Assembly (NCBI GenBank): GCA_028699085.1
Contig: JAQVVF010000005.1
Location: forward strand, 79-64,078
Direction: 5' to 3'
Origin: Patescibacteria group bacterium
Lineage (GTDB): Bacteria; Patescibacteriota; JABMPQ01; JAQVVF01
Length of the DNA stretch: 64,000 nucleotides
Part shown: one piece after another, positions 13,606 through 58,905 of the stretch
Position numbering within the stretch: position 1 is the first letter of the stretch
Layout: the number at the start of each line of letters is the position of its first letter
Program-made: the position numbers and the translations under genes
The notes under the pieces: generated by a model
The model's database searches: none
What the model saw: only the letters and a program-made list of their open reading frames with translations
What the model was told of the DNA's origin: nothing

Positions 13606-14817
13606 ATGCTTACATTTTTACTTATCTTGACATTGATCTTGGTTTTAACTTGTGGCTTTTTAGCTTTCAATTTAATTAAAATTAATAAAAAGTTAGCAGA
13701 GCCTACGGATAATGAGAATGACAAAATTTTGCACGAGCGCATCGATAATTTAAATCAATATGTATCTCAGAATTTAAATCAAACTAACAAATCAATTTCT
13801 GAAAATTTGAATCAAGTTACCAAAACAATGTTAGCCCAAATAAGCTCTCAAACTACTCAACTCAATGAGCGCTTAAAAGAGAATAGTGAATTAATCCAAA
13901 AATCTCAAGGAACTGTTGGTTCGCGTTTAGACAATGCTGCCAAAGTCGTTAGTTCTGTCCAGACAAAATTAGCGCAAATGGAAGAATCAAATAAAAAGAT
14001 TTTTGAAGTCGGTAAAGATATTAGAGGTTTGCAAGAAATTTTGAAAGCTCCAAAACTTCGTGGATCTTTGGGAGAATTATTTTTAGGTGATTTATTATCT
14101 CAGACTTTTTCTAAAAATCATTATCAAGAACAATACATGTTCAAATCAGGTGAAAAAGTTGATGCCGTTATCAAGTTAAAAGATAATATGCTTGTTCCAA
14201 TTGATGCAAAGTTTCCATTAGAAAATTTCCATAAGATGATCAATTTAGCCAAGAATGATCAGGAAAAAAAGATGTACAAAAAAATGTTTAAAGACGACGT
14301 CAAAAAACACATTACCGCAATTTCCAAAAAATATATTTTGCCAGATGAAGGCACAATTGATTATGCTTTGATGTATATTCCAGCTGAAAATGTTTACTAT
14401 GAAACAATAATCAGAGATGAAGATGAAAATAATTTAGTTAATTTTGCTTATACCAAAAAAGTATTTCCAGTTTCTCCAAATTCACTCTACATCTATGTCC
14501 AAGCAATTTTACTTGGCTTAAAAGGCATGCAAATTGAAGAAGGAGCTAAAGACATGATGAATTATATTCAAAGATTGCAAGGTGATTTCAATAAGTTTGA
14601 AGATGACTTTAGTGTTCTGGGAAGTCACTTAAATAATGCCCACAAAAAATTTGATGATAGTGAAAAAAGATTAGGCAAGTTTCATGACAAACTAATCGAA
14701 ATTGATAGCAGAATTCCTCAGCCTGAAAAAATAGTTGTAGATAAAAAAGCTTTACCAATTAAGCCAGAAGTTGCTGTGCAAGTTACAGGGCAAGAAAACA
14801 TTAATTTATATAATTAA
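13606..14817 (+). CDS. rmuC: DNA recombination protein RmuC
   Basis: N-terminal TM segment, long coiled coil and an RmuC core (LRGSLGELFLGDLL...). 403 aa. Confidence 0.75.
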   Translation: MLTFLLILTLILVLTCGFLAFNLIKINKKLAEPTDNENDKILHERIDNLNQYVSQNLNQTNKSISENLNQVTKTMLAQISSQTTQLNERLKENSELIQKSQGTVGSRLDNAAKVVSSVQTKLAQMEESNKKIFEVGKDIRGLQEILKAPKLRGSLGELFLGDLLSQTFSKNHYQEQYMFKSGEKVDAVIKLKDNMLVPIDAKFPLENFHKMINLAKNDQEKKMYKKMFKDDVKKHITAISKKYILPDEGTIDYALMYIPAENVYYETIIRDEDENNLVNFAYTKKVFPVSPNSLYIYVQAILLGLKGMQIEEGAKDMMNYIQRLQGDFNKFEDDFSVLGSHLNNAHKKFDDSEKRLGKFHDKLIEIDSRIPQPEKIVVDKKALPIKPEVAVQVTGQENINLYN

Positions 14818-38377: not shown

Positions 38378-39211
38378 ATGCCAAACGGAGTTCCTCCAAC
38401 AAATTTACCTACAAATGATCAAAAAAATTCAGCTAATGAACCACCAAAAACAACATTCAAGCCATCTCCTGATAGAGTTAAAAATTTTCGTAAACAAATG
38501 GGAAAAATAAATCCAGAACCTGGAATGCCAAGTCGTCCAACACCACCAACACCACCGACTCCATCAGCACCTCAATCTCCAAAACCACAGCCACCAATGC
38601 CTCCAAAACCAACAACTCCAGAACCTCCTCAATTTGCACCAAAAGCACCTACACCAGCTCCAATGACGCCAAAGCCAACTCCTCCTCCGACTCCAGCACC
38701 AAAACCTAAAGCTCCAGTTCCTCCTCAGCCAAAAAGTCCAGAAATGCCAGAGCAAGCAGACGGTCCTTCAATTGAACAAGTTGAAAAGAAAAATTTAGTT
38801 GTTAAAATAATTATTTTAATTGTTGTTGTTGCTGCTTTAGCTGGATTAGTTTTGGGTGGAGTTTTTGCTTATAATAAATGGCTTAGTCCGTCTTCAAAAA
38901 CAAATACTACTAATACAAATTTGAATACTAATACGCAAGTTATTCCAGAAAACATAATTATTAATGAACAAATTAAAATCAAAGATTCAGATGGTGATAC
39001 AATTACTGATGAATGGGAAATAAAATATGGCCTTGATCCTAATGATCCAGCTGATGCAAATAAAGATAACGACAAAGATAAGCTAATAAATATCGAAGAA
39101 TTCAAATACAAAACAAATCCGAATAGCCAAGACACAGATGGAGATACATTTAGCGATTACATTGAAATACAAAAGGGCTTTAATCCAAACGGTGCCGGTA
39201 AATTAAAATAG
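38378..39211 (+). CDS. Pro/Thr-rich single-pass membrane protein with C-terminal thrombospondin type-3-like Ca-binding repeats
   Basis: (PTPP)n low-complexity region, TM helix (IIILIVVVAALAGLVLGGV) and DxDxDG repeats (DSDGDTITD, DTDGDTFSD). Confidence 0.5.
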   Translation: MPNGVPPTNLPTNDQKNSANEPPKTTFKPSPDRVKNFRKQMGKINPEPGMPSRPTPPTPPTPSAPQSPKPQPPMPPKPTTPEPPQFAPKAPTPAPMTPKPTPPPTPAPKPKAPVPPQPKSPEMPEQADGPSIEQVEKKNLVVKIIILIVVVAALAGLVLGGVFAYNKWLSPSSKTNTTNTNLNTNTQVIPENIIINEQIKIKDSDGDTITDEWEIKYGLDPNDPADANKDNDKDKLINIEEFKYKTNPNSQDTDGDTFSDYIEIQKGFNPNGAGKLK

Positions 39212-39214
39212 TAT

Positions 39215-39739
39215 ATGCAAAATTCTGGATTTAACAAATCAGCACTGTCATCAAGCAATCAGCAAAATCAAAAACCAAATCTAGAATTCCAATATTTACA
39301 ACAAAACAACAAGAAACATTCGATTCTTGTTGTTTTACTGATTATATTTTTAATTATTATTCTCGGTATTATTTGCGTAATTGCTTATGATTTTTTTCAA
39401 AAAAACAAGCAAGCAAATCTAACTGCAGATTTATATAATCAAGATATCGATGGCGATGGGTTGACGACAATTGAAGAGCTAAAATATGGTACTGACCAAA
39501 ATCAATATGATACAGATTTTGATAAAATGCCAGATGGCTGGGAGACAAGAAACAATTTAGATCCAAAAGATTATCTTGATGCAGTTAAGGATAATGATGA
39601 AGATGGCTTAACAAATCTTCAAGAGCTGCAATATAATTCCAACCCGAATATTAAAGATACTGATAATGATGGTTTTAACGATGGCGATGAAGTAAAAAAC
39701 AATTATAATCCTAATGGTGAAGGTAAAATCATTAAATAA
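39215..39739 (+). CDS. Membrane-anchored thrombospondin type-3-repeat protein, paralog of the upstream gene
   Basis: N-terminal TM plus DIDGDGLT, DNDEDGLTNLQELQY and DTDNDGFNDGDE repeats. The C-terminus aligns with that of 38378..39211. Confidence 0.5.
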   Translation: MQNSGFNKSALSSSNQQNQKPNLEFQYLQQNNKKHSILVVLLIIFLIIILGIICVIAYDFFQKNKQANLTADLYNQDIDGDGLTTIEELKYGTDQNQYDTDFDKMPDGWETRNNLDPKDYLDAVKDNDEDGLTNLQELQYNSNPNIKDTDNDGFNDGDEVKNNYNPNGEGKIIK

Positions 39740-41117
39740 AAACTTTAAAAATAAATTTATTTATGCCAAAATTATTTTAATTTTAGGCATAGTTTTGTTT
39801 TTACCAAAAATTTCATTTGCTAAAATTCCATTCAATATTTTGGTCAGCACTGGTTTCGGTGTTAATCCTCAATTAAAAGAATTTTCTAATACTGGAAAAG
39901 TTGCCAGCTATTTATCAAATATAAAACAATTACCAAAAAACAATAAAGGCATTAACGTTGCTTCTGGCGATGTTGATGGTGATGCTATTGACGAGATAAT
40001 AATCGCTCAAAGAGCTGGCGGAAATTCAGAAGTTTTAGTTTTTGAGAAAAACGGCAAATTTAAAAAACCAATTTTGAATCCGTATCCTAATTCAGTTACT
40101 GGAGTAAATATTGCTGCAGGTGATGTTGATAAAGATGGCAAAGACGAAATTATTACAGTTCCTGCAGAAGGTGGAATTGCACAAGTTAAAATATATCGCT
40201 TCAATAAAAAACAAGAAATTATCAAAGAATTCAAGGCTTTTAGTGAAGATAAATGTGGAGGATCTGTTGCCTCAGGAGATATTGATCATGACGACAAAGA
40301 TGAAATAATTGTTGGCAATGGACCAAAATGTCCTCCAAAAGTTCGCGTTTATGAATCTAACGGCACTAGATTGCCATTAGAGTTTTATGCTTTTAATCCA
40401 AATTTTTTGGGCGGAATTGATGTTGCTGCCGGCGATGTTGATAAAGATGGAATTGATGAAATTGGCACTTGCCAATCTCAGCAGCAAGCTTGGTGCAAAA
40501 TTTACAAATATAAAAATTATACTCCTTTAATTGGTTCATGGCTTGCCTATAGCAATTTTGAAGTTGGCGCTAGAATTGATTTTGCTGATTTGGATTCTGA
40601 TGGCCGCGATGAAGTAATTACTGGTACGGCTCATGGCACTCCGCAAGTCCGTTTTTTTGAAGCATCAGGCGCTCCAATCAATATTAATTTTTACCCATTT
40701 CCAAAAAATTATGATTCCGGTATTGATGTCGCTCCATTTTTCGCTAACAACAAATCACAGGAAAAAGTCATTTATGTTGAAGATGGCGACAGTATTTATT
40801 TAACTGATAGTAGGGAAATGCGCTATATCGGTGTTAATGCTCCGGAAGTTGGCAAAAAGTATTATGAGCAAGCAATTAATCTAAACAAAAGGTTAGTTGA
40901 ACACAAAAATATAACTCTAGAATATGATGTTGATCGCGAAGATCATATTGGCCGAGATTTAGCTTATGTCTTTGTTGGAAAAAAATTTATTAACAAAATT
41001 ATAGTCGCCAAAGGCTTAGCCAAGGTTGATACTTATAAGCCAAATGTAAAATATCGATCAGTATTTAAAAAAGCCCAGCGTCGAGCTCAAAGATTGCACC
41101 TTGGAATGTGGAAGTGA
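39714..41117 (+). CDS. Secreted FG-GAP/VCBS-repeat beta-propeller protein fused to a staphylococcal-nuclease (SNase/thermonuclease) domain
   Basis: Signal peptide (...LPKISFA|K). At least five GDVDxDGxDEII FG-GAP-type repeats. C-terminal SNase-like region (IGVNAPE..., RDLAYVFV, ...QRLHLGMW). Confidence 0.65.
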   Translation: MVKVKSLNKNFKNKFIYAKIILILGIVLFLPKISFAKIPFNILVSTGFGVNPQLKEFSNTGKVASYLSNIKQLPKNNKGINVASGDVDGDAIDEIIIAQRAGGNSEVLVFEKNGKFKKPILNPYPNSVTGVNIAAGDVDKDGKDEIITVPAEGGIAQVKIYRFNKKQEIIKEFKAFSEDKCGGSVASGDIDHDDKDEIIVGNGPKCPPKVRVYESNGTRLPLEFYAFNPNFLGGIDVAAGDVDKDGIDEIGTCQSQQQAWCKIYKYKNYTPLIGSWLAYSNFEVGARIDFADLDSDGRDEVITGTAHGTPQVRFFEASGAPININFYPFPKNYDSGIDVAPFFANNKSQEKVIYVEDGDSIYLTDSREMRYIGVNAPEVGKKYYEQAINLNKRLVEHKNITLEYDVDREDHIGRDLAYVFVGKKFINKIIVAKGLAKVDTYKPNVKYRSVFKKAQRRAQRLHLGMWK

Positions 41118-45043: not shown

Positions 45044-46177
45044 TTATTTTGTAATTATTTCCACGTTTCCAGATCCTCCTGGTACAGTCTTTTGCCAAAT
45101 AGGCGAAAAATAAATATCTACATTTTCAATATCTTCCTGGTATTTTTTATAATAAGTTTTTATTTCATCATAATTAAATCCAGTAATTTTTTCTTTATCC
45201 AATGCTTCTTTAGGTAATACTGGTTTTAAAAAAGCAGAGCAAGATATTTTAAAAATCGCTTGGTTTTTTTGTGGATTCAACTCAATTATTTCAGCTTTTA
45301 AATTATTTTCATCAAGTTCTGCAAATTCTTTTTCACCAATAATTTGTCCTTTTAATTTTGCAATTGCCAGATTTTCTAGCATTTCTTTATTTAACAAAAC
45401 TCCAGCAATTTTTAATTTTAAATCAGCTTTCAATTTATCTGCCTCTTCATTCGCATTGGCTGATGTCTTAAAGCTTGAAATTTCTTTTTTAAAAAGCTGA
45501 TCCCAAAGCTCTTCATTATCTTTTTGTTCATTTTTGATATCAGTCAAAAATTTAGAAAATAAATCATCAACTATTTTATTTCGTAAATTATTTATATCGT
45601 CATCAGAAACAATTTTGCCAGTCTTTTCGCCTCCAGTAAATTCTTCTTTATTTTCAGCATAAACTAAATCTTTCCAGCCAGACCAAAGTTTTACAAAAGT
45701 AAATTTTGTTGGTTTCAAATTTCCGGCAATGCCTTTTTGGCTGGCAATAACTTTCATTTCAACCTTATCTTTCGGTTTTAAAATCAAAGGCCCAGTTGTC
45801 TTAAAAATTATTTCTGAATTATCAGGTTTTAATTGTGAAGAAGCAACTAATGTTAATGCTTTATCTTGTTTGTTATAAACAGTAACTTTTCCAGAAGCAA
45901 AATCATCAACCTTTTTTTCTTTAATGTCTGTAATCTCTTCAGAACCTGCAATTTCTTTTTCCACAAATCTGCCACTAACAGATGTAGCATTAATTTTTTC
46001 TTTGCCAACTGCAATTTCAAAAGTCGTATCAATTTTTTCCTTGCGCAATTCTAAAGTTATCTTGGCTTTAGAGAAAGAAGTATAGAAGACAAAAACTAGT
46101 ACTAAGAAACTTATAATTCCAAAAACAAATATTATTTTATAAGGTGAGCGTGAAGGTCCAATTTTGCCTAAGTTCAT
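45044..46177 (-). CDS. Hypothetical membrane-anchored protein
   Basis: N-terminal TM then a 350-aa K/E-rich domain. No recognised family. Confidence 0.4.
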   Translation of the reverse strand: MNLGKIGPSRSPYKIIFVFGIISFLVLVFVFYTSFSKAKITLELRKEKIDTTFEIAVGKEKINATSVSGRFVEKEIAGSEEITDIKEKKVDDFASGKVTVYNKQDKALTLVASSQLKPDNSEIIFKTTGPLILKPKDKVEMKVIASQKGIAGNLKPTKFTFVKLWSGWKDLVYAENKEEFTGGEKTGKIVSDDDINNLRNKIVDDLFSKFLTDIKNEQKDNEELWDQLFKKEISSFKTSANANEEADKLKADLKLKIAGVLLNKEMLENLAIAKLKGQIIGEKEFAELDENNLKAEIIELNPQKNQAIFKISCSAFLKPVLPKEALDKEKITGFNYDEIKTYYKKYQEDIENVDIYFSPIWQKTVPGGSGNVEIITK

Positions 46178-46692
46178 ATATTTAAAAACCTAAAAAAATT
46201 AAAAATATTAATACGCTTCTTCCTAATTATTCTTCTGCGAATTCTTATATTAAGGCCAATAATCCCAGGCCAATTTTTCTTAAGCCAGATTTTTGATTTC
46301 AAAAAGTAATCATCTAATCCACGGCTTGACATTTCTTTTCTAATTATACCGCCTTGATGAGGGTGGCGAAATGATTGGGCTAGGGGAGAAGAAAAGCCAT
46401 GTGCATAATGAACAAGTTCATGAATAATTGTTGCATCAACTACATACTGAGGTATTTTTTCATCTTTAAAATAAGAGGTTAAAGTTATAATTGTTTGATT
46501 ATTTTCTGGATTAAGCTTGATTGATCCAAGTCTTGCTTTAGCTTTTCGCCCAAACAAAATCACAATATCATTTTTGATTTGTATATCAGAAAAATAATTT
46601 TGTAAAAAAAATATCAGCCGTTGTTTTAGCCAATTATTATCTCTAACCATTAGTTTCTGCTTTAATAATGCTAATATTGCCAGTACCAACAA
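46174..46692 (-). CDS. DUF45/YgjP-like (SprT-like) zinc metallohydrolase
   Basis: HExxH motif in IIHELVHYAHGFSS. 172 aa. The true start is possibly the internal ATG at 46650, which reduces the overlap with dnaE. Confidence 0.6.
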   Translation of the reverse strand: MLVLAILALLKQKLMVRDNNWLKQRLIFFLQNYFSDIQIKNDIVILFGRKAKARLGSIKLNPENNQTIITLTSYFKDEKIPQYVVDATIIHELVHYAHGFSSPLAQSFRHPHQGGIIRKEMSSRGLDDYFLKSKIWLKKNWPGIIGLNIRIRRRIIRKKRINIFNFFRFLNI

Positions 46693-49600
46693 TCATTTCA
46701 AGTTGGCTCAATACTTTCGGATCATATAGAATGCATGACTTTGCCTTAATTTTTTTAAAACTGCCATCATGATACGGAACATTAAGAAAAACAGCAGTAG
46801 AGCCTAAATTATTCAAAATAATCGGTTTTAAATCTTCAATAATTCTTGAATTTGCAGTTTTTGGGATATTAATTTCAATTGATTTCGGAATTTCTTCTTT
46901 AGCGACTTCAATATCCTTGTCAGAAATTATTTTAACTTTATCTGCCAAAATTTTGACTTCGCCATCGCGATCATTAACTTTGCCATCAATCAAAACAATC
47001 TTTTCTTCTTGCCAAATAAGCGGATTCTTTTTCAAAACAGAAGGAAAGACAACAATCTCGCAACTTCCTGTTAAATCTTCAATCTCAACAAATAGCATTG
47101 GTTCATTCTTTTTAGTAAATATTTTCTTGGTCTTTGCAATTACTCCGCCAACTTTAATTTTCTGTTCATTCATGCTTACGTTCAACTGATTAATCGGAAT
47201 TGCGACAGCATTCAAATAATCTTTATATTCATCAACCGGATGTTCAGAAACATAAAGTCCTAATAATTCTTTTTCCCAAAGCAAGCGCTCTTTTTTAGAA
47301 GCAGGTTCTGCAGGATCTAATTTTAAATTAATAGTTGAAACATTTTCTTTTTTATTTCCAAACAAATCAGTCTGGCCAGAATCTAATTCTTTTTGAATCG
47401 ATTTTGAAAAACTTAATATCTTATCAATATTTTGCAATACTTGATTTCTCTCAATTAATGAATCCAAGGCACCAGACTTTGCCAAAGCTTCAATCGATTT
47501 TTTGTTCAAGTCTTTATGTCGAACACGTCGAACAAAATCAGAAAAATCCTTAAATTTACCAGCTTTCTTTCTCTCTTTATAGATTGCGGAAGCTATAGTT
47601 TCGCCAACATTTTTGATCGCATTGAATGCGAATCTAATACATTTGCCACGTTCTTTAACTACACCAAAATTCGGAAAACTTTCGTTTACATCAGGAGGTA
47701 AAACTTCAATTCCCATTTCCTCACATTCAGTTATCTCAATTGCAATTCGATCCATATTCTGTTGATCAGAGGTAAGCAATGAAGCCATAAATTCAACTGG
47801 ATAATGAGATTTCAAATATGCAGTTCTATAGCCAATCAAGGCATAGCAGGCTGCATGAGATCGATTAAATCCATAGCCTGCAAAAGGCTCAATAAATGCA
47901 AAAACTTTTCTAGCAACGTCTTCTAAAATTCCATTTGCAACACAACCTTTTATAAACTTATCTTTTTGTTCTTCCAACAATTCTTTAATTTTCTTACCAA
48001 CTGCTTTGCGCAAAACATCAGCCTCGCCTAAAGTAAAGCCAGCCAAATCTCTGGCAATCTGCATCAATTGTTCCTGATATACTGCAATACCAAAAGTTTT
48101 TTTCAAAATTGGTTCAAGTTTTGGATGAACATATTCAACTTTTTTTCTACCATGTTTGCCATCAATATAAGAAGGTATCCACTCCATTGGACCTGGACGA
48201 TATAAAGCAACCATTGCAATCAAATCTTCAAAGTTAGTTGGTTTTAATAATTTCAGATATCTTCTCATGCCAGCAGATTCCAATTGGAATACGCCTACAG
48301 TCTGCGCTTTTTGCAACAAATCATAAGTTATCTTGTCATCCATTGCCAAATCAGTCATATCAACTTTAACTCCATGGACAGCCTCAATAATTTCCAAAGC
48401 CTTTTCAATAATTGTTAAGTTTGCTAGTCCTAAAAAGTCCATTTTTAATAAACCTAAATTTTCAATGGCATGCATTTCATATTGAGTCGTGATTTCTTCA
48501 TCTCCTCGAGTAGAAAATTGATAAGGCGTATAAGTATCAAGTGGATCTTTAGTAATCACAACTCCGCAAGCATGAGTCGAAGAATGTCTGGCAACGCCTT
48601 CCAGCTTTTTAGCGGAATCAAAAAGCACTTTTGCTTGTGGGTCTCCGTTATAAAATGCTGTCAATTCAGGATTTATCTTAAGCGCTTCAGAAATTGTCGA
48701 GCCAAGTGGGATCATCTTTGCTGCTTTATCGCAATAATCATAAGGATGACTTAAGACCCGGCCAGCATCTCGAACAGCAGCTTTAGCAGCCATTTTTCCA
48801 AAAGTAACAATTTGAGCGACATGATCAGCTCCATATTTCCTTTTTACATATTGCAAAACTTCACCGCGTCTTGTATCAGCAAAATCCATATCGATATCAG
48901 GCATGCTTATTCTTTCAGGATTCAAAAATCTCTCGAATAATAAATCGTTTTTAATCGGATCCAAGTCAGTAATTCTCAATAAATAGGCGATTAATGAACC
49001 AGCAGCTGAACCTCTTCCTGGCCCGACAACAATTCCGGTATCTTTTGCCCAATTCACAAAATCAGAAACAATCAAAAAATATGAAGCAAATCCAGTTTTC
49101 TCAATGACTGACAATTCATAATCTAATCTTTCAGTGATAACTTTATCCAAACTTTCTCGATTTTTACCAAACCTTCTTAGCAACCCTTGTTCACACAAAT
49201 TTTTCAAATAGTCCATTGGCGTCAATTCTTTAGGCACAATGAAATAGGGAAGCTTAGTCTTGCCTAATTCAATTTCAACATTGCACTGTTCAGCAATCTT
49301 TAAAGTATTTGAAATTGCTTCAGGAGTATTTGCAAAAGATCTTTCCATTTCTTCTGTAGGCTTCATTGAAAAATCTTCACCCATCATTGACATCCTATTT
49401 TTGTCATCAACTTTTTTCTGCAATTGGATACAAAGCAAAATATCTTGAATTCGATCATCTTCCTTTTTTAAATAATGGATATCATTAGTTGCAACTAAAG
49501 GAGCGTCAATTTCTTTTGCAATTGCAATTAATTTTTCGTTTGCTTCTGCCTGTTTTTTTATTGTTGGATGATGTTGTAATTCTAAATAATAATTTTCTTT

Positions 49601-50095
49601 TCCAAAAATTTCTTGATATTTTAAAGCAGTTTCTTTTGCTTGCTTTACATTACTCAAAGCTTCGCGTGCAATTTGTCCTTCAATGCAAGCTGTTAATCCA
49701 ATCAAGCCTTTGCAATTACTTGAAAGCAATTCAAAATCTATTCTTGGCTTATAATAAAAACCTTCAACATGCGCCTTTGAGATTAACTTCAATAAGTTTC
49801 TATAGCCTTCTTGATTTTTTGCAAGCAAAATCAGATGATAGGGTCTTGTATCGATATGAGCTCTTTTATCCTGCATTCTATTTGGAGCAACATAAGTTTC
49901 TACTCCTAATATTGGCTTAATACCGGCATTTTTGCAGGCCTGATAAAATTCAACTATCCCATACATCACGCCGTGATCAGTCAAAGCAGCAGCAGGCATG
50001 CCTAATTCTTTTGCATGCAAAACCAGCTCGTCAATTTTTGGCAAGCCATCAAGTAGGGAGTAGTGACTGTGTGTATGAAGATGGACAAAACTCAT
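46643..50095 (-). CDS. dnaE: DNA polymerase III alpha subunit
   Basis: PHP domain (MSFVHLHTHSHYSLLDG), polymerase core and OB fold. 1150 aa. Confidence 0.95.
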   Translation of the reverse strand: MSFVHLHTHSHYSLLDGLPKIDELVLHAKELGMPAAALTDHGVMYGIVEFYQACKNAGIKPILGVETYVAPNRMQDKRAHIDTRPYHLILLAKNQEGYRNLLKLISKAHVEGFYYKPRIDFELLSSNCKGLIGLTACIEGQIAREALSNVKQAKETALKYQEIFGKENYYLELQHHPTIKKQAEANEKLIAIAKEIDAPLVATNDIHYLKKEDDRIQDILLCIQLQKKVDDKNRMSMMGEDFSMKPTEEMERSFANTPEAISNTLKIAEQCNVEIELGKTKLPYFIVPKELTPMDYLKNLCEQGLLRRFGKNRESLDKVITERLDYELSVIEKTGFASYFLIVSDFVNWAKDTGIVVGPGRGSAAGSLIAYLLRITDLDPIKNDLLFERFLNPERISMPDIDMDFADTRRGEVLQYVKRKYGADHVAQIVTFGKMAAKAAVRDAGRVLSHPYDYCDKAAKMIPLGSTISEALKINPELTAFYNGDPQAKVLFDSAKKLEGVARHSSTHACGVVITKDPLDTYTPYQFSTRGDEEITTQYEMHAIENLGLLKMDFLGLANLTIIEKALEIIEAVHGVKVDMTDLAMDDKITYDLLQKAQTVGVFQLESAGMRRYLKLLKPTNFEDLIAMVALYRPGPMEWIPSYIDGKHGRKKVEYVHPKLEPILKKTFGIAVYQEQLMQIARDLAGFTLGEADVLRKAVGKKIKELLEEQKDKFIKGCVANGILEDVARKVFAFIEPFAGYGFNRSHAACYALIGYRTAYLKSHYPVEFMASLLTSDQQNMDRIAIEITECEEMGIEVLPPDVNESFPNFGVVKERGKCIRFAFNAIKNVGETIASAIYKERKKAGKFKDFSDFVRRVRHKDLNKKSIEALAKSGALDSLIERNQVLQNIDKILSFSKSIQKELDSGQTDLFGNKKENVSTINLKLDPAEPASKKERLLWEKELLGLYVSEHPVDEYKDYLNAVAIPINQLNVSMNEQKIKVGGVIAKTKKIFTKKNEPMLFVEIEDLTGSCEIVVFPSVLKKNPLIWQEEKIVLIDGKVNDRDGEVKILADKVKIISDKDIEVAKEEIPKSIEINIPKTANSRIIEDLKPIILNNLGSTAVFLNVPYHDGSFKKIKAKSCILYDPKVLSQLEMIVGTGNISIIKAETNG

Positions 50096-50098: not shown

Positions 50099-50701
50099 TT
50101 ACTTTCTACGTCCTTGAAAATAATATATTGTGCCAACAGCCAATATTGCTATGCCAGCAATCAATAAAATGACAAACAAAACCCAACTAAAGATTAGATG
50201 CGATAATGAGACAAAAAGATCGACAATCATTCTGCCAAAACTGGTTGCATCAAGCAAAAAGATAATTAAGAAAAAAATAAGAAATATTAAAACAAACTTT
50301 TTAATAAAAACTTTAGGCTTTGGTAAAAAAGTGCTCAAATATAACTTTATTTTTTTCATAGCAGACATTTTTTTCTTTTCAAAATCAACTAAATCTTTAA
50401 TTGCCTGATAATAAAAAGCTAAATCATTTTTTATTTCATAATTTGATGCAGAAAAATTTGCTTTTTCGATTGCTTTTTGATACGCGCTTCTAGCTTGTTT
50501 CAAATCTTCATATTCTGAAAAAACAAAGCTTAGAGCCTGAACTTTTCTTTCAAAATCTTCACCGGGCAAATCAAAATTTTCTACAATTTGCTTAAAAATT
50601 TTTTCAGTCTCGACCAAAGACATCAAATCTCCGCCAGCAGTTTTTTCAGCTAGATATTTTTCTACTCTTTCCCATGATAATTCCTTGTTGTTTGTCGGCA
50701 T
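50099..50701 (-). CDS. Hypothetical protein with C-terminal TM helices
   Basis: 200 aa. Soluble N-terminal domain and two C-terminal TM helices. Confidence 0.4.
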   Translation of the reverse strand: MPTNNKELSWERVEKYLAEKTAGGDLMSLVETEKIFKQIVENFDLPGEDFERKVQALSFVFSEYEDLKQARSAYQKAIEKANFSASNYEIKNDLAFYYQAIKDLVDFEKKKMSAMKKIKLYLSTFLPKPKVFIKKFVLIFLIFFLIIFLLDATSFGRMIVDLFVSLSHLIFSWVLFVILLIAGIAILAVGTIYYFQGRRK

Positions 50702-50801
50702 TTATTTTTCAAAATATAAAATATCCTTCAAATCATTATATAATAAAACCAAGTTAAACTCAAACAAACAAAAAGCGGATCTTTCGATCCGCTTTAACAT
50801 C

Positions 50802-53800
50802 CTATTGAGCTATTTTTGTAAATTCTGCGCTATTTAAAAATTCATTCTTGATGTCCTGTATTGATTTTCCTGATTGCTTCCAATAATTCACGCCTGAAAT
50901 ATCTGCAGCTCTTGCATACAAAGTTTCATATAATTCTTCGATTTGTGCTTCTTTGTCTTTGATTGCTTTTAATCTATCGTCATACTCTTTGCTCATAGCC
51001 AGCTCTTTTCTCATTTCTTTTGCATTAGGCAATGCAACCAATTTTTCTATACCTGTTTCGTCACCGCCTCGCTTTAATACTATTTGATATGCTAGGTCAG
51101 CTTCAGCTATCTTCTTTTCTTTTGGCTGCATTTTATTTATATTACCAACAGCTTCTGGACTGACCGAAATTGCAAATTTAGCTCCTGAAATATCAATCTG
51201 TTTATTGTCATTTCTTTCTATTTGCTTTGTCCAGTAATCAACTCCATTTTTATCAACAAATTTCTTTATATTATCTTTATATATTCTATCATGAATGCGT
51301 CGATACAAATTTTCGACAGCTTTTTTTGTACCCAATTTTGCTGCCGTTGCTTGCAGCCTCTTATCAAATTCTTTATATTTTCTGTCATTAAGCAACGTAA
51401 AATGTACCCCTCTCAAACTCAGAGGCTCTTGGTTATTTGTCGGTTTGTAGAAAAAATTTGCTCCACCTCCACGCAAACTTTTATCAGGTTGTACATATTT
51501 ATTAACCTGAAAATTATCTCCAAAGACTAAATTATAATAATAGAGAATTGTCTGAAATCTATTCAGCGTTTTAAAGTCACCAATATCTGAACATCTATCA
51601 GATAAGCTAACTTGGAAATAATATGGTTTTTGTCCAGCCACGTAACCTTGATCATTTTTGTCTGAAAATTCGCCGCCTTTTAGATTTTCAAGCACTGTAT
51701 AATATTTATTTTCATTATTTTCATAGTAGGTTTTTGCGTTCTGCAAATTTCCGCCGACTGCAATGCCATTATTATTAATCACAGCATCAGTAGTATATTT
51801 AAAATCTAGATCTTTATTTTTGTATTCATCCTTGCCAGTTTCCCATTTAATAACAACTCTGTCAGCTCCTCGCTGTATTAACTGAGGATTTTTTAATAAA
51901 TCAGCATCATTGCTCGGGCAAAACGCTTGATCTTCGCTTAATGCAGTAACTTTTATTGGAGCAGCATTAGCTAAAGGATGAACAAAAGTAAGCTTTGCTT
52001 CATATTCTCCAGGGTTTTGATATACGTGTTCAGGATTTGCTACATCTTGCAATGTTGTACCATCACCAAAATCCCAAGTATATGGTACGCCTGTCAGATC
52101 AATATCTTTATATAAATTCTCAAAACTAAAACTGACCGTTAGAGGAGCCTTGCCAGCATTTGGGTTGGCATTGATTTTTACTCCACTGGCGTATATCCAT
52201 GGCCCATTTACATATTTTGTATTTCCATCAGCATCTCTGACTGCCAAAGCTGTACTATAAATCCCAGAGTTTTTATATTTAAAAGTAGGGCTTGATTCAT
52301 CGCTATCAAGCAATTGGTACTCAGAAATCGGCTCCTGATTATACATTTCATCAGATTTTGCGAATTCCCAGTCATATTTATAAGGTCCTTTTCCGCCCGT
52401 TACTGTTGCCGTAAATTTAACATCCATTGGCGCAAGTCCTTGAGTTGGTGTCGCATCAATTGACACATTCAATGCACCCAAATCAACTTCTCCTCCGGGT
52501 GGTTCTGGCAGAGGTTCATCTCCAAGTTCGCCAGTTTTTACGGTAAAATCAAGTCGATCTAAATATATACTAGTTGGCAACGTAACCATCTCCTTTGATA
52601 CAGAGGTATTTGCAGGTACTGCGTTTGGGTCATCCGGAGTAATAATTTGAATATTCGAAATGCCTGGATTTAATGCCTTTATTTTTGCTCCTTGATAACA
52701 TTTTGTCCCAAAACCACCGCTACTGCAATCAACTTCTACAGTATCTAGTTTAATTAAATTTTCAGCAAAATTAGTTTTTGTATCTTCCTTCTGTGCTTGT
52801 TTAAAATCAATCGTGTCAGATTGTGGAATTGTAAAAAAATTTACATCCTCACTACCTTTAAAAGAAACAATATTTTCCAGAGGTTTATTATATTCAACTC
52901 CATTAGGATTACCAGTATTAGTATTAAATTCATATCCTAATGCATATTTTAAACCGCTTGCAGTCTGTTGAAAAATATCCTGATTAAAGTTATAAACAAA
53001 ATTATAATTAATATCTCTTACCAAATCCACTTTTCGCCAAGTCGCTCCTTTGTCAAAGCTAAAAAATAATTTTAAATCACTTGCTTTAATAGAGTCTCGA
53101 TATTCAGCAAGGGGATAATATATTCTATCTAGCCACAATTTACCTTCAATTCCTTTTATGCTTTTTCCGCTAATATTTATTTCATTTGCACCAGCATGAG
53201 TTTCTGATAATTCTTTAGAAAGTATTAATTTATTTGTTAATTTTTCTTCAAAAAATGGTTTTGCAGTTCCGAGCCCAGCATTAGTTATGTTATTAAAAAC
53301 TGCTTCGTCACTTGTTAGGTCGCTGTCTACGGTAATTTCTAAAGAATTACTTGGTATTCCGCAAATTCCAGCACTAATTGTCGATTTTCCTTTAAAAACC
53401 GGTATGATGCTGCCATTGGCTGTCATTAAAAGCACTTTAGGTTGACTCGATTTCCATCTTAAAAGATCAGACCAAGTAATTGAATTATAATTAACAAAAT
53501 CATCGCCAATACTAGATCCATCAAAATCTCCAGTATCTGGATTAATTGGCTTGCCATTTATGCTAATTTGAATTGCGTTTCTTAGTCTATCAATGCCAAA
53601 TCTTAACCAAGAAGATTGGACGCTATTATCAACAATTGTTACTTTCTGAGGGTTTGGAGTGATTTCAATTGTATCAATTTTGTTTGCTAGAGAAGTAGAG
53701 CATAAATAATTTGTTGATTCTGTATTAAGGTCTTTACTAAAACTATTTTCGTTACTTGCTAGCTCAATATTATTATATTCTTCCGTTACATTTTGAAAAT

Positions 53801-54098
53801 TACCATTTGCGTCAACAATTGTAGTCTCTTCTGTTAGGCCGACTAGCTTGCCTTCATTTCCAAGAACTAAATCATTTGCATCATCAAAAGCCTCCGAAAA
53901 TTCAATTGTTCCTGTTCCCAATCTAGCTACACCAAAATACCAGATTGCAGTTCCAATTCCAATAGCAACTAAAATAGCAAAAACGATTCCAGTTGCGATT
54001 CTAGTCCTGCTTCTAGTCGCAGTTTTTGTTGATAACTCTTCTTGATTATTCATATTTTTTTTATTATGCGTCAATGATTTTTGCCATTTTTTTGGCAT
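50802..54098 (-). CDS. Large membrane-anchored surface protein with PKD domains and C-terminal DUF4214-like repeats
   Basis: 1098 aa. N-terminal TM. PKD-like segments (GGKGPYKYDWEF; YTWDFGDGT...GEY). Two C-terminal (D/G)VNYW...EF repeats. Confidence 0.6.
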   Translation of the reverse strand: MPKKWQKSLTHNKKNMNNQEELSTKTATRSRTRIATGIVFAILVAIGIGTAIWYFGVARLGTGTIEFSEAFDDANDLVLGNEGKLVGLTEETTIVDANGNFQNVTEEYNNIELASNENSFSKDLNTESTNYLCSTSLANKIDTIEITPNPQKVTIVDNSVQSSWLRFGIDRLRNAIQISINGKPINPDTGDFDGSSIGDDFVNYNSITWSDLLRWKSSQPKVLLMTANGSIIPVFKGKSTISAGICGIPSNSLEITVDSDLTSDEAVFNNITNAGLGTAKPFFEEKLTNKLILSKELSETHAGANEINISGKSIKGIEGKLWLDRIYYPLAEYRDSIKASDLKLFFSFDKGATWRKVDLVRDINYNFVYNFNQDIFQQTASGLKYALGYEFNTNTGNPNGVEYNKPLENIVSFKGSEDVNFFTIPQSDTIDFKQAQKEDTKTNFAENLIKLDTVEVDCSSGGFGTKCYQGAKIKALNPGISNIQIITPDDPNAVPANTSVSKEMVTLPTSIYLDRLDFTVKTGELGDEPLPEPPGGEVDLGALNVSIDATPTQGLAPMDVKFTATVTGGKGPYKYDWEFAKSDEMYNQEPISEYQLLDSDESSPTFKYKNSGIYSTALAVRDADGNTKYVNGPWIYASGVKINANPNAGKAPLTVSFSFENLYKDIDLTGVPYTWDFGDGTTLQDVANPEHVYQNPGEYEAKLTFVHPLANAAPIKVTALSEDQAFCPSNDADLLKNPQLIQRGADRVVIKWETGKDEYKNKDLDFKYTTDAVINNNGIAVGGNLQNAKTYYENNENKYYTVLENLKGGEFSDKNDQGYVAGQKPYYFQVSLSDRCSDIGDFKTLNRFQTILYYYNLVFGDNFQVNKYVQPDKSLRGGGANFFYKPTNNQEPLSLRGVHFTLLNDRKYKEFDKRLQATAAKLGTKKAVENLYRRIHDRIYKDNIKKFVDKNGVDYWTKQIERNDNKQIDISGAKFAISVSPEAVGNINKMQPKEKKIAEADLAYQIVLKRGGDETGIEKLVALPNAKEMRKELAMSKEYDDRLKAIKDKEAQIEELYETLYARAADISGVNYWKQSGKSIQDIKNEFLNSAEFTKIAQ

Positions 54099-54111
54099 TT
54101 TTTAAATTTAT

Positions 54112-57015
54112 TTATTTCAAAACATTCACAAACTCATCACTCTTTAAAAAATCTTCTTTAATTTGCGGAATGGTTTTATTTGATCCCGCCCAATAATCGA
54201 CTCCAGCAACATCAGCAGGTCTTGCATATAGAGTTTCATAAATTTCTGCAATTGCTGCTTTTCTGCCACCTTCTTTTTCTATAGTTTCTAATCTATTATT
54301 GTATTCAAAACTATTTGCCAAATCTTCGCGCATTCTTTTTTGAGAATCCTTAAAAGTATCAATCAAATAGTTAACTCCGTCTTGATCACCGCCACGTTTC
54401 AAAACAACATTGTAAGAAAATTCTGCATTTGCCTCATCTTTTGAAGCAAATAATTCTTGCAATTGGTTTCGAGCTTCTATACTTGCTGAAATAGCAAATT
54501 TTGCGCCTTCTTTTGAGATACGGTCTTTTTGTCTAATTTTCGTCATTTGTCGATACCAATAATTTACTCCATTATCATCAGCAAACTTGTAGAGATTATC
54601 GTCATAAATTCTATCTAAGCTTTTTTTGTATAACCAGGCTACTAATTTTTTAGTTGTTTTTTTCTTATTCAAATAATTGTTGAATTCTTTGTATCTTCTA
54701 TCATTTAACATCATGAACCTAATACCAGGCAAAGTAATATCTGTATTATACCAGAAATCTACTCCGCCATTTTGAACATTTTTCCATGTATAATCTTTGT
54801 TCAAATCATATTTTCGATCAAAAATCCAATTATAGTAATAGAGGATTGTTCTTTTTCTATTTAATGTTTTAAAATCACCTATAGTATTTTGTCTTTCAGT
54901 ATCTAAAAAGATATCGCTATTTCCAGCTTTGAATTGATAATAATATTGCATTCTGCCATCACTAAATCCATCTTGATCATAACCATCTTTTTTACCGCCT
55001 TGAAGATCTCTTAAAACAGCATAATATTTCGAATCTTTAGTGTCATAATAAACTTTAGCTGTTTTATCCAAATTATTTTTATCAGTTCCATAATTAAACT
55101 TCAAAGTCTTCGCATCAAAAGAGCTTTTTAATTGATTTTTTGTCTCATCATTAGCTCCAGCTAATTTTACTATGACTCTGTTATGACCTCTGTAAATATA
55201 TGTTGAAGTGCCAACGCCTTGATTCTCCGTACCTGGATCATCATCGCCGTCAACTTCATCAGTCTTTATCGCAGTATACGAAATATTCAATTTATCAAGA
55301 TTTAAATATGCATCAGGCAAAACCAAAAAACCAAATTCCTTTTTAGAAAGTACTCTTCTGCCTTCGCCACCATCAGGGGATAAAAAAGTTACTTTTATTT
55401 TCCCATAGCCTACTTTTATTCCTGCTATAATATGGCTTACTGAATTCAAATGATCAGATGGATGACCAGCTTGATCAGTCACTCTGATAATATGATTTTC
55501 ATTTTGACCAGGAACTTGTAAAATCTCAGGGGTAAGGTTTTCAATAATCACATTATCGCTATTAAAATTATCTGTTCCTGCCGGGTCTTGAGTCGGCCAG
55601 TAGTTTTTCTTCAGAAAAAAATAATCTTTAGCATTTTCATTGCCTGCTGTGATAATACCTGCATTTATTAAATCCTCTTCTAACATTTGATTTCTATCAC
55701 TATTATTCTGTATTTCCATTAAAGGTGAGGATGTCATGCCGATTTCAAATCCGCCAGCCTGTCCATTTTGTCCGCCAGGCATTAGATCTGGTGGTGCCAA
55801 ATTTGGGATCTCTTGCTGTGGAATATCTGCTTGGATCCGTCTTAAATTGTATAAACCATTGTCATCAGATTGAATTATTGTAGCCCATTTTAGGGCATGA
55901 CCTTGTGAATTTGTGAAATCATAGCGAAATTTTTTAGCTCCAATTTTATTAATAATATAATCGGATTCTTCACTCAAGTTTTTCCAGTTCTGCCTATCTT
56001 CAGAAAATGCTGATGGTATGTACCATGTTTTTCCGTCATCATTAGATGCTAATAAAGTTATATCGCCTTTTATTTGGTCAGAATCCTGTAGTAAAATTCC
56101 TTCTAGCTCTGAAATATTAACATCAATTTCTGCTTGAGTAATATTATATTTGTCATCCAAATTAGTCGAAATATTTTTTGAGACTGTCTGCCCTTGAATA
56201 AAACTAGTATCAAGGACTTGACCTACCGGATTAAATTGATCAAATTCGCTTATGTCTACAGCAACTTGAGTACTGGCTTTTTTTTGTCCGCAAGCATTGA
56301 CTTGTAATGTTGTAAATCCATCTGGAGCTATCGGTAAAACAGATAATCTTGTTGATCCAAACATATCATTATAGACAACAGCTGCCGTCGGATTTGTTGA
56401 TTGCACCATTGCTTGTGAATAGTTACTGCCTTCGCCATTTTGATCGAAAATTTCATATTCAAATTTATAAGGTAAGTCGCTCTTTTTACCTAATTTAGCG
56501 CCTGTAAAATTCATTGTATTTGTTTGGACTCCGGCTTTTTCTACTTTGAGATTTCTGATATCTACCATATTAGCTAAAGAAATGTCATCAATACATGCTG
56601 GTACATCGCTATCGCCACTAGAATTTGGAGCACAGATTTTTCCGCAAATTTGTTTTGTTAGTCTAGCAGTTTGGTCATTTTCGGTTAATTCTTTTGTCGT
56701 CAAGCTAATTTGCTTACTCGGATTTAATAATAATTTTCCATCTTTTAATACCATTTGAGAATCACTACTATCTCCATCAATGTTATTAAAATTCAAAAAA
56801 TCTTCAGTTTTTGAACAAATATATGTATTATCATCTTGTTTTTGGCATCCAGCAGGCGGAACAACTCCAGCAAAAAATATTGCTGTGCCAATTGCTGTAA
56901 TCACAACTAAAGCAGTTACTAATCCAACAACAACTCTAGATCTGCTAGAGACTCTTGTTTTGGTTTTTACATTATTCATATGTTTTTTATTATTAGTTTT
57001 GTTTTTGTTATTCAT
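54112..57015 (-). CDS. Large membrane-anchored surface protein, paralog of 50802..54098
   Basis: 967 aa. N-terminal TM. Shared C-terminal architecture (DFKTLNR..ILYYYN; GVNYW/GVDYW repeats). Confidence 0.6.
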   Translation of the reverse strand: MNNKNKTNNKKHMNNVKTKTRVSSRSRVVVGLVTALVVITAIGTAIFFAGVVPPAGCQKQDDNTYICSKTEDFLNFNNIDGDSSDSQMVLKDGKLLLNPSKQISLTTKELTENDQTARLTKQICGKICAPNSSGDSDVPACIDDISLANMVDIRNLKVEKAGVQTNTMNFTGAKLGKKSDLPYKFEYEIFDQNGEGSNYSQAMVQSTNPTAAVVYNDMFGSTRLSVLPIAPDGFTTLQVNACGQKKASTQVAVDISEFDQFNPVGQVLDTSFIQGQTVSKNISTNLDDKYNITQAEIDVNISELEGILLQDSDQIKGDITLLASNDDGKTWYIPSAFSEDRQNWKNLSEESDYIINKIGAKKFRYDFTNSQGHALKWATIIQSDDNGLYNLRRIQADIPQQEIPNLAPPDLMPGGQNGQAGGFEIGMTSSPLMEIQNNSDRNQMLEEDLINAGIITAGNENAKDYFFLKKNYWPTQDPAGTDNFNSDNVIIENLTPEILQVPGQNENHIIRVTDQAGHPSDHLNSVSHIIAGIKVGYGKIKVTFLSPDGGEGRRVLSKKEFGFLVLPDAYLNLDKLNISYTAIKTDEVDGDDDPGTENQGVGTSTYIYRGHNRVIVKLAGANDETKNQLKSSFDAKTLKFNYGTDKNNLDKTAKVYYDTKDSKYYAVLRDLQGGKKDGYDQDGFSDGRMQYYYQFKAGNSDIFLDTERQNTIGDFKTLNRKRTILYYYNWIFDRKYDLNKDYTWKNVQNGGVDFWYNTDITLPGIRFMMLNDRRYKEFNNYLNKKKTTKKLVAWLYKKSLDRIYDDNLYKFADDNGVNYWYRQMTKIRQKDRISKEGAKFAISASIEARNQLQELFASKDEANAEFSYNVVLKRGGDQDGVNYLIDTFKDSQKRMREDLANSFEYNNRLETIEKEGGRKAAIAEIYETLYARPADVAGVDYWAGSNKTIPQIKEDFLKSDEFVNVLK

Positions 57016-57116: not shown

Positions 57117-57413
57117 TTAGGCAGTTTCTACTGGCCCTTTTATTTCCTTTGCAACTCTTTTTGCTCTTCTTTTGAATTCTGAAACACCGCTTTTTGTTTG
57201 TTCTGAAATCTCTTGAGCTTTTTTCATTCCAGCTTTTTTCCAAGCATCAGCTTTTTCCATACCAACTTTTTTCCATTCATTAGCTTTTTCTTTTAATTCT
57301 TTTCTGGTTTCTTCGCCAGATTTTGGTGCAAACAAAATTCCTAAAGCAGCGCCAATTACAGCACCAATGACAATTCCTCCGACAACACCGCCACCATTGC
57401 AATTACATGACAT
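57117..57413 (-). CDS. YtxH-like small membrane-associated protein
   Basis: N-terminal glycine-zipper TM (GGIVIGAVIGAALGILFAPKSGEETR) and K/E-rich tail. Confidence 0.55.
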   Translation of the reverse strand: MSCNCNGGGVVGGIVIGAVIGAALGILFAPKSGEETRKELKEKANEWKKVGMEKADAWKKAGMKKAQEISEQTKSGVSEFKRRAKRVAKEIKGPVETA

Positions 57414-57449: not shown

Positions 57450-57755
57450 TTATTCTCCTTTAAAAGCGCCAACAATGCTTCTAACTTTTTTGAAAACCTG
57501 TGACAATGATGCAATCGGTTTTAATAAATTATTGTTGATATCTTGAATAGTTGTTGTTAAGCCATTAACAGTTGTTGTCAAATCTTTGACCATTGGATCA
57601 ATTTCATTTAATTTTCTGTTGACATCTTCTACAGTCTTTTTTGATTCTTGGACAATCTTAGTTAAGTTAAAGACTAAATGACATAAAAATCCCGTAAATG
57701 CCAAAATCGCGATGCTTGATGCAATCAGCAAGATATCGTTGCTTGTTTCTAACAT
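57450..57755 (-). CDS. DUF948-like small membrane protein
   Basis: N-terminal TM then coiled coil. 101 aa. Adjacent to the YtxH-like gene (common pairing). Confidence 0.45.
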   Translation of the reverse strand: MLETSNDILLIASSIAILAFTGFLCHLVFNLTKIVQESKKTVEDVNRKLNEIDPMVKDLTTTVNGLTTTIQDINNNLLKPIASLSQVFKKVRSIVGAFKGE

Positions 57756-58755: not shown

Positions 58756-58757
58756 TC

Positions 58758-58905
58758 GAATTTCTAATTTTCAATTTCTAATTTCTATTGAATATTTAAT
58801 TTCTAATTTTCAAACCTAAAGTTTAGAAAAATTAGGATGAATTTTGTTTAGAAATTAATTATTTAAAATTTAATAGAAATTTAAAATTAGAAATTAGAAA
58901 TTTCA
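58758..58905. repeat. AT-rich imperfect inverted repeat built from TTCTAATT/AATTAGAA boxes around a central ctaaagtttag palindrome
   Basis: Left arm 58758..58812 is ~75% identical to the reverse complement of right arm 58851..58905. Intergenic, directly upstream of ftsW/rodA. Confidence 0.5.

Follow-up and report, generated by a model that had tools for sequence, protein, structure and literature searches.

The described systems closest to the proteins studied here are surface proteins with DUF4214, a widespread domain with no assigned function. Psh of Pseudomonas putida is a secreted RTX-DUF4214 protein that binds the O-antigen of lipopolysaccharide (LPS), with probable masking of phage receptors and broad phage resistance, and its authors suggest that the DUF4214 domain helps to stabilise the O-antigen complex (bioRxiv 10.64898/2026.09.02.748959). 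For segmented filamentous bacteria (SFB), DUF4214 has been put forward as a domain that likely anchors proteins at the surface (PMC12780176), and DUF4214 proteins have also been linked to S-layer-anchored enzymes (PMC11970703). We found no literature on Patescibacteria that mentions DUF4214. Here we analyse a tandem pair of such open reading frames (ORFs), ORF2 and ORF1, in a 64,000-nt stretch of a Patescibacteria group bacterium genome (assembly GCA_028699085.1, contig JAQVVF010000005.1, positions 79 to 64,078; the window). Their products may be cell-envelope proteins with a conserved docking module at the C-terminus and a variable displayed ectodomain.

Patescibacteria comprise a large share of bacterial diversity. 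To our knowledge, all cultivated representatives live attached to other cells, and their surface molecules are largely unknown to us beyond type IV pili and a few Saccharibacteria adhesins.

ORF1 and ORF2 share with Psh and the SFB proteins DUF4214 repeats (C-terminal and above the Pfam threshold here), an extracytoplasmic context (predicted here), variable partner domains and a proposed role in surface docking. Unlike Psh, they have neither RTX repeats nor a type I secretion system (T1SS), and export would proceed via an N-terminal transmembrane (TM) anchor; compared to other DUF4214 proteins, their repeats come as a constant set of four, joined to a beta-sandwich, and conservation of this 360-residue whole is seen only in their own family. 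In their mode of action the two proteins may be most similar to modular wall-protein families of monoderm bacteria, which combine a conserved docking module, variable surface domains and clustered paralogs. The CWB2 proteins of C. difficile and the SLH proteins, as is generally known, likewise have one docking module, many variable domains and paralogs in clusters, but in ORF1 and ORF2 the putative docking fold is that of DUF4214, the N-terminal TM helix is kept, and the array occupies a housekeeping slot by dnaE. With invasin/intimin, Leptospira Lig and PKD surface proteins they share Big_2-like and PKD beta-sandwiches in series and weak structural similarity; on the other hand, they have no outer-membrane beta-barrel anchor and no C-type-lectin tip, being anchored by a TM helix, and away from the anchor they end in a conserved helical module instead of a variable binding domain. 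Finally, the DUF4214 helical repeats, as modelled at low confidence, match the fold of the phycobilisome linker PF00427 (3nph, 3osj), but there is no phycobilisome context and neither ORF reaches PF00427 by sequence, so the likeness would be that of a docking helical module and not of a shared function.

Architecture of the two proteins

ORF2 (967 amino acids (aa), 54112–57015) is the first gene of the pair and ORF1 (1098 aa, 50802–54098) the second; the coordinates are those of the window, and these genes, their parts and their neighbours are on the minus strand. Both reading frames are intact and separated by 13 nt, and our ORF check reproduced the two adjacent genes, with these lengths and positions, that had been proposed in a sequence-only reading of the window by a model. 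In an independent assembly (L010) ORF2 is identical and ORF1 also has 1098 aa. A terminator-like hairpin with a 10-bp stem and a T-run (50772–50795, minus strand) lies directly 3' of the ORF1 stop codon, and because of it ORF2 and ORF1 are probably co-transcribed as a two-gene transcript. The start codons are ambiguous (54053–54098 for ORF1 and 56979–57015 for ORF2): the relative P0013 begins at the equivalent of Met16 of ORF1, which may be the true start, and ORF2 has an in-frame Met13. The TM helix is kept in both proteins whichever start codon is used. No clear Shine-Dalgarno motif is seen in the AT-rich sequence upstream of either start, and a promoter scan was uninformative (36 sites vs. 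37 expected).

The main feature of the pair is the common C-terminal module. The sequence-only reading had noted a shared C-terminus with the motifs DFKTLNR...YYYN and GVDYW/GVNYW...EF; the motifs are present in the sequences, and BLASTP aligns ORF1 and ORF2 at 41% identity over 380 aa (E 2e-69). It had counted two repeats there, where hhalign distinguishes four (R1–R2, E 2e-4; R2–R4, E 4e-6; R3–R4, E 2e-4), preceded by a beta-sandwich of approximately 100 aa, the whole module being of approximately 360 aa. In ORF1 (module at aa 741–1098) the beta-sandwich is at aa 741–840 (51579–51878), Fn3/Ig-like as judged by predicted strands and Foldseek matches to Fn3/Ig domains, and the helical DUF4214-like repeats R1–R4 are at aa 841–1098 (50805–51578), delineated with Pfam DUF4214, hhalign and the fold match. 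The ORF2 module, also a beta-sandwich and four DUF4214-like repeats, is at aa 607–967 (54115–55197; Pfam, BLASTP and repeat profiles), and matches the module hidden Markov model (HMM) with E 3.5e-195; within the window, the module is confined to ORF1 and ORF2. The C-termini (...AEFTKIAQ and ...DEFVNVLK) are within the last DUF4214 repeat. The Pfam DUF4214 scores (PF13946) are 33.3 bits for ORF1 and 28.9 bits for ORF2 at a cut-off of 23.2, and by Pfam assignment both proteins belong to the DUF4214 family, and ORF1 also to the PKD family.

In Foldseek comparisons the helical part matches the phycobilisome-linker fold (3nph, 3osj) with probability 1.0 and TMt 0.55–0.58, for a module model built from an alignment of seven sequences with a mean predicted local distance difference test score (pLDDT) of 50. 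This agrees with the fact that 24 of 67 generic DUF4214 proteins cross-match PF00427. A sequence search of PDB with the module profile yielded nothing significant (best AccD, E 1.4), and the purple acid phosphatase N-terminal domain, Pur_ac_phosph_N, was matched in two family members, the matching part not being localised.

The partner domains of the same 67 generic DUF4214 proteins include BspA-type LRR (LRR_5), Big_2, CHAP, NlpC/P60, G5 and DUF11, as well as Listeria-Bacteroides repeats, sortase, choline-binding repeats, beta-helix and MACPF. A wall-targeting context is indicated by the wall hydrolases and the choline-binding repeats that occur beside DUF4214. None of the 25 partner families listed for these proteins is an intracellular enzyme family, and the extracytoplasmic placement proposed in the sequence-only reading stands. 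Since DUF4214 elsewhere accompanies surface and cell-wall domains, the assignment of ORF1 and ORF2 to surface proteins is well supported.

At the other end, each protein has one strong hydrophobic segment, as had been predicted, and the hydropathy scan yielded no second TM candidate in either of them. The helix is at aa 28–52 of ORF2 (56860–56934, Kyte-Doolittle 2.57) and at aa 34–58 of ORF1 (53925–53999, Kyte-Doolittle 2.45); in ORF2 it is preceded by a K/R/T-rich stretch (aa 1–27) with nine K/R and no D/E residues, and in ORF1 nine K/R residues are found ahead of it. The tail and TM region is 46% identical between ORF1 and ORF2 over 37 aa (BLASTP), and an N-terminal helix with positive charge on its N-terminal side is seen in all family members examined. 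Across the family, the mean pairwise identity is 36% in the TM segment and 15% in the ectodomain next to it, and this speaks against a signal peptide that is cleaved off; the helix is strong, charge-biased and conserved family-wide, which would fit a retained membrane anchor. It is Gly-rich with a recurrent G-I-G motif, and in the basic tail T and K alternate. By the positive-inside rule the N-terminus would be cytoplasmic, with all residues after the TM helix extracytoplasmic (N-in/C-out), and conserved Cys pairs and Cys-rich linkers fit such a location.

Two further features of this region may be mentioned. In the cytoplasmic tail (ORF1 aa 22–33, ORF2 aa 16–27) the motif T-K-T-K-x-K-x-x-T-R is kept even in very divergent members, which hints at a cytoplasmic interaction or sorting signal. 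Members of the A-type, to which ORF2 belongs (see below), have a conserved P-(A/S)-G-C just past the helix (ORF2 aa 53–68, ~56850–56860), and a second Cys 9–10 residues further on. The PAGC motif was considered as a lipobox and rejected, as Pro at –3 breaks the [LVI][ASTVI][GAS]C consensus and B-type members, such as ORF1, do not have the motif; more likely, it forms a short loop that is closed by a disulfide and lies at the membrane surface.

The variable ectodomain

Between the helix and the module the two proteins are strongly diverged, in agreement with the sequence-only reading, which had described divergent central regions; still, these regions are homologous, as the A-type and B-type ectodomain profiles align over approximately 200 columns (ORF1 aa ~177–396 and ORF2 aa ~155–388, probability 97%, E 8.5e-11). 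The aligned stretch spans a Big_2-like segment (...G-x-I-x-P-x3-G-x-T-x-I-x-A-x2-C-G) and an Asp-box (S-x-D-x-G-x-T-W), the latter being found in 23 of 27 long family members. The ORF2 ectodomain (aa 53–606, 55198–56859) comprises the Big_2-like segment and the Asp-box SNDDGKTW at aa 324–331 (56023–56046), and is 44–45% identical to its orthologs. In ORF1 the N-terminal ectodomain is at aa 59–545 (52464–53924), with the Big_2-like segment at aa ~205–260 (53319–53486) and the Asp-box hairpin SFDKGATW at aa 347–354 (53037–53060). In Pfam, Big_2 is below the threshold in both proteins.

PKD-like motifs had been reported in the longer protein, and two Pfam PKD domains are indeed found in ORF1 at aa ~548–715 (51954–52457), and in ORF1 only. 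The matches to PKD_4 (PF18911, 56.5 bits) and PKD (PF00801, 54.6 bits) cover aa ~555–712 and are above the gathering score; in PDB, the region matches the PKD domains of ColH with E 6e-10. No Pfam PKD match is observed in ORF2, nor in P0013, which has a Cys-rich linker in that place.

The AlphaFold2 (AF2) model of ORF1 aa 60–545 is all-beta, with a predicted template modelling score (pTM) of 0.70, and is confident for model residues 1–335. Its Foldseek matches are weak (E 5e-4 to 1e-2, TM-score ~0.13) and include Ig-like arrays of the adhesins InvD (invasin), intimin and LigA, the S-layer proteins SbsC, Sap and EA1, and a Big_2-CBM56 pair; in a viral structure library the neighbours are phage BIG2-domain proteins.

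Family, locus and evolution

Relatives were collected by searching 1.84 billion representatives exhaustively with an HMM of the module, in place of a word-indexed homolog search, as the latter returned three matches per query and missed obvious relatives. The complete module is present in approximately 30 clusters (31 at E <= 1e-30), always at the extreme C-terminus of proteins of 443–1315 aa, and approximately 2000 further proteins match generic DUF4214 repeats only. All members with a source name are from Patescibacteria ("Patescibacteria group", Doudnabacteria, Andersenbacteria), and all are annotated as hypothetical; hence, as far as these searches reach, the family seems to be restricted to Patescibacteria and so far undescribed. 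A scan of GTDB genomes with back-translated patterns found one species, probably because the patterns were very strict.

Out of 30 members, 29 have a Pfam match to DUF4214, six to PKD and three to Big-like domains, whereas an LVIVD propeller and a LamG plus GH123_N combination occur once each. The minimal members P0005 and P0006 (~505 aa) comprise the tail and TM helix, a Pro/Glu-rich linker of ~110 aa and the module, and nothing else, so the module alone, held off the membrane, would be the irreducible unit; P0004 has the minimal layout plus a single PKD domain. The family thus has two invariant parts, a TM helix at the N-terminus and the module at the C-terminus, with variable cargo between them. 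Other cargo on the same scaffold is exemplified by P0007 with an LVIVD beta-propeller insertion and P0015 with LamG and a GH123 N-terminal domain, and the sequence of P0016 looks enzyme-like by eye only; as these three proteins carry different cargo, the scaffold may also display enzymes. Four features appear not to have been described previously: the constant 360-aa combination of one beta-sandwich with four DUF4214 repeats, its pairing with an N-terminal TM anchor, and the conserved chromosomal slot and mosaic allele structure considered below.

The gene order around the array is ATP synthase, L25, RodA/FtsW, a 284-aa protein, DUF948, YtxH, the array, a 200-aa protein, DnaE and, further on, ThrRS. 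The upstream neighbours are two small membrane/coiled-coil proteins identified by Pfam, YtxH-like (57117–57413) and DUF948 (57450–57755), and the downstream ones, the 200-aa membrane protein with no Pfam match (50099–50701) and DnaE (46643–50095). The core order recurs in the close relatives L001 (three copies) and L003 (two copies), in L005, with copies of 504 and 1036 aa, and in the distant lineages L008 (three copies with toxin-antitoxin pairs between them) and Doudnabacteria L009 (four copies). The YtxH-DUF948 order is the same in all five, while the position of the 200-aa protein varies, as it is absent from L009 and is on the opposite side of the array in L008. An N-terminal TM helix and the full module are both encoded by each of the 14 tandem genes of these five loci. 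We conclude from gene order that ytxH/DUF948/rodA...dnaE is a core-genome slot and not a mobile island. The genome, termed episymbiont-like in the sequence-only reading, is from Patescibacteria, in agreement with the sources of family members and with the window GyrB, which is 100% identical to that of an NCBI metagenome-assembled genome labelled "Patescibacteria group bacterium" and whose nearest named relatives are from Moranbacteria, Parcubacteria and Veblenbacteria (64–67% identity).

The module sequences form several clades. The A-type comprises ORF2, P0002, P0003 and P0007 (module identity 67–91%), and the B-type, ORF1, P0013, P0009, P0010 and P0011 (61–72%); the remaining ones are the C-type (P0004, P0008; 75%), the short clade (P0005, P0006; 71%) and the PKDx2 clade (P0012, P0018; 64%). 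In L001 and L003 the orthologs of the two types are still arranged in the same order, indicating that the ORF1/ORF2 duplication is old. Hence, of the tandem paralogy suggested by the sequence-only reading, the common origin is upheld by the 41% identity of the shared module, but the duplication itself is not a recent one.

DnaE, RodA, L25 and DUF948 are 89–96% identical between the window and L001/L003, the range being 89–94% for the first three and 90–94% for DnaE and RodA. For ORF2 (orthologs P0002, 65%, and P0003, 59%), the respective identities with L001 and L003 are 59% and 65% for the whole protein, 44% and 45% for the ectodomain, and 80% and 91% for the module; ORF1 is alignable in the module only, at 61%. 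By these comparisons ORF1 and ORF2 are by far the fastest-evolving genes of the neighbourhood, with divergence concentrated in the ectodomain.

Moreover, P0013 (contig L011) is 97% identical to ORF1 at aa 60–530, but has no PKD domains and its module is only 61% identical. At the DNA level (blastn), the identity with L011 is 93.2% up to aa ~530, followed by a non-homologous block and then by a stretch of 71% identity; the approximate breakpoint is at 52490–52520, minus strand. As a near-identical N-terminal half is joined to a 61% module and an unrelated linker, we consider ORF1 or P0013 to be a mosaic, recombination being the sole explanation of this pattern. In the near-identical half, the synonymous rate (dS) is 0.18 and the nonsynonymous one (dN) 0.019, with dN/dS of 0.10, the ratio being calculated for this pair only, as ORF1 against ORF2 and the distant orthologs, with 41–65% amino acid identity, are saturated at synonymous sites. 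Over short times, the near-identical half is under purifying selection. Diversifying selection, invoked in the sequence-only reading, is therefore not demonstrated, the ratio being 0.10 in the one measurable pair; what these comparisons demonstrate instead is cassette exchange and very fast long-term divergence. Variation in copy number and sequence, which that reading proposed as a check, is observed as arrays of 2–4 copies and one mosaic allele.

Gene conversion and hypermutation by diversity-generating retroelements (DGRs) were also considered, and rejected: direct repeats of at least 30 nt involving ORF1 or ORF2 are absent from the entire 64-kb window, and no reverse transcriptase is found among the annotated window ORFs, a part of the window ORFs having been scanned.

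The slot also gathers small insertions. HEPN/nucleotidyltransferase toxin-antitoxin pairs are observed immediately before the array and also separating its first gene from the second, and the slot holds Avd-like (23S_rRNA_IVP/bAvd) and PDDEXK_3 genes as well (slot insertions at 8940–9779, 13723–14453 and 6618–8043 in L008, 9052–9408 and 16372–16818 in L003, and 8599–9000 in L005). The Avd-like genes do not indicate a DGR, as no reverse transcriptase is seen. A ~377-aa protein with weak Baseplate_J matches adjoins dnaE in the window (45044–46177, minus strand), L003 (20792–21925) and L008 (1847–2986), and is two genes from dnaE in L005 (from 21409); the window copy has a faint ThsA_Macro match. 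AT-rich imperfect palindromes with AATTTCTAATTT-like units and arms of 42–57 nt, 74–82% complementary, are located between the 284-aa gene and rodA (58756–58902) and may be a regulatory or terminator element. Genes of contig CAZNOH010000004.1 (L003/L007), labelled "Candidatus Saccharibacteria", are 89–92% identical to those of the window; as the nearest named GyrB relatives of the window are Moranbacteria and Parcubacteria, the label may be inaccurate. The GyrB presumably of the L003 genome has 1119 aa with an intein domain (PF14890), and the window GyrB has no intein.

Possible roles and other features of the window

We tentatively favour, at somewhat less than even probability, the explanation that ORF2 and ORF1 are A-type and B-type cell-envelope proteins whose conserved module docks on the cell's own envelope while the variable ectodomain is displayed. 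The docking role is suggested by the conservation of the module across lineages while the rest changes, by the minimal members, in which a long Pro/Glu-rich spacer leads up to it, and by the wall-active domains that DUF4214 accompanies elsewhere. The target of the module would be a conserved envelope constituent of the cell itself (peptidoglycan, a wall glycopolymer or an S-layer), or else the module of an adjacent copy, so that the protein would be fixed at its two ends or tied to the outer layer of the envelope. The variable Ig-like/PKD middle would then be the face exposed to a host cell, phage or grazer, and paralogs and alleles would alter the displayed surface with the docking chemistry unchanged.

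Several considerations count against this explanation. The docking role is argued by analogy with DUF4214 proteins that are themselves only partly characterised in function, a protein with an N-terminal TM anchor has no need of a second one, and an extended chain would put the module at the distal tip, which fits binding of an external target equally well. The full module is present in few lineages, and hence is not a universal component of the Patescibacteria envelope. The match to the phycobilisome-linker fold is only indicative because of the low confidence of the module model (pLDDT 50), and the retention of the N-terminal helix as an uncleaved anchor is a prediction from helix conservation.

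It is reasonable, if unproven, to regard ORF1 and ORF2 as candidates for a role in the cell coat or in host contact. The latter possibility, which is rather unlikely, is that they are host-attachment adhesins, projecting from the epibiont membrane and binding the host either with the variable Ig-like/PKD region or with the DUF4214 module at the distal end, with paralogs and mosaic alleles tracking host surface diversity. It agrees with the PKD domains of ORF1 and with the resemblance of the ectodomain model to the Ig-like arrays of InvD, intimin and LigA, although these matches are weak and S-layer proteins are equally among them. The N-terminal anchor allows for a distal C-terminus, and the DUF4214 protein Psh does bind a surface glycan, but the putative tip, that is, the module, is the most conserved part of the protein, kept in lineages with presumably different hosts; such conservation across distant lineages is unlike that of a host-specific adhesin tip. 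Similarly, these are the fastest-evolving genes of the neighbourhood, with a mosaic allele and 2–4 copies per array, yet dN/dS is low where measurable, and the genes are in a fixed core-genome slot rather than an island. Transposon sequencing (Tn-seq) of Southlakia has demonstrated that multiple adhesins are required for epibiotic growth (PMC10633639), which favours an adhesin role, while the organism studied here has no known host.

An S-layer or another surface coat seems unlikely. The proteins would form a lattice or membrane stalks similar to archaeal membrane-anchored stalk proteins, with DUF4214 providing contacts and the paralogs being alternative or co-assembling subunits. The large size, several Ig-like domains and tandem arrays of paralogs fit this, as do the weak Foldseek matches to SbsC, Sap and EA1 and the conserved interaction module, whose modelled fold is similar to a protein-docking one, that of the phycobilisome linker. 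Moreover, a 2024 survey predicted novel classes of S-layer proteins in Patescibacteria, with TM helices among the anchoring modes (bioRxiv 10.1101/2024.05.28.596244), but our family could not be linked to the proteins of that survey. No SLH, CWB2 or other known S-layer domain is detected by Pfam, and such extreme architectural variety as in this family (504–1315 aa, some members with enzyme-like cargo) is not usual among lattice subunits. A broader form of the idea, to which we also assign a low probability, is that the ytxH-dnaE arrays encode the major surface coat, that is, membrane-rooted subunits or stalks of the S-layer-like envelope observed in ultra-small bacteria, where Fn3 and the four DUF4214 repeats would be a self-assembly or anchoring interface, and the recombining, exchangeable Ig-like/PKD outer face would set host and phage specificity; if true, this would be the first molecular handle on the Patescibacteria envelope and would define a function for DUF4214.

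A receptor-masking coat on the pattern of Psh, with the DUF4214 module attached to a surface glycan of the cell itself and phage receptors hidden behind the bulky ectodomain, has the P. putida precedent and fits rapid ectodomain turnover and recombination in an arms race, but is very improbable given that the analogy comes from a single preprint, LPS O-antigen is not expected in Patescibacteria, and the locus has no RTX repeats, no T1SS neighbours and no PADLOC match.

Assignment of the proteins to established classes was attempted as well, and the following candidates were rejected. The SLH/CWB2 S-layer type has no Pfam match in ORF1 or ORF2 and none among the reported matches of 30 members. 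A Psh-like RTX substrate of T1SS is contradicted by the absence of RTX/HemolysinCabind matches and by the neighbours, which are YtxH, DUF948, RodA and DnaE. The C-termini end inside the last DUF4214 repeat, unlike those of sortase-anchored LPXTG proteins. The invasin/intimin/Lig class is not supported, as ORF1 and ORF2 have no Pfam Big_2 match and a TM-helix anchor, Big-like domains being found in three of 30 relatives. For phage origin or a defence system, the search in PHROGs produced one insignificant match, and PADLOC, none.

Our results add evidence for DUF4214, widespread and without an assigned function, as a surface or cell-wall docking module. The family is a good experimental target, as its fixed slot can be found by synteny, it combines a constant putative docking module with a hypervariable, recombining display region, and its natural minimal forms isolate the conserved unit for binding assays. 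Even if these proteins are ordinary surface decoration, the result is a useful annotation for approximately 30 clusters of "hypothetical proteins".

Two other regions of the window deserve mention. A perfect 49-nt GC-rich inverted repeat (1–49 and 7856–7904, the left arm being cut by the window edge) flanks a 7.8-kb type I restriction-modification cassette (453–7845), which could be mobile or invertible; GC content of its first 4 kb is above that of most of the window. The tandem ~800-aa ORFs of this cassette were considered as paralogs and rejected, since they encode HsdR, a fused HsdM-HsdS and an AAA_13 ATPase. A likely secreted cluster on the plus strand (38378–41117) includes two proteins with calcium-binding TSP3 repeats and a 467-aa protein with FG-GAP repeats, encoded by 156-nt tandem DNA repeats, and a C-terminal staphylococcal-nuclease domain, which is plausibly an extracellular nuclease.

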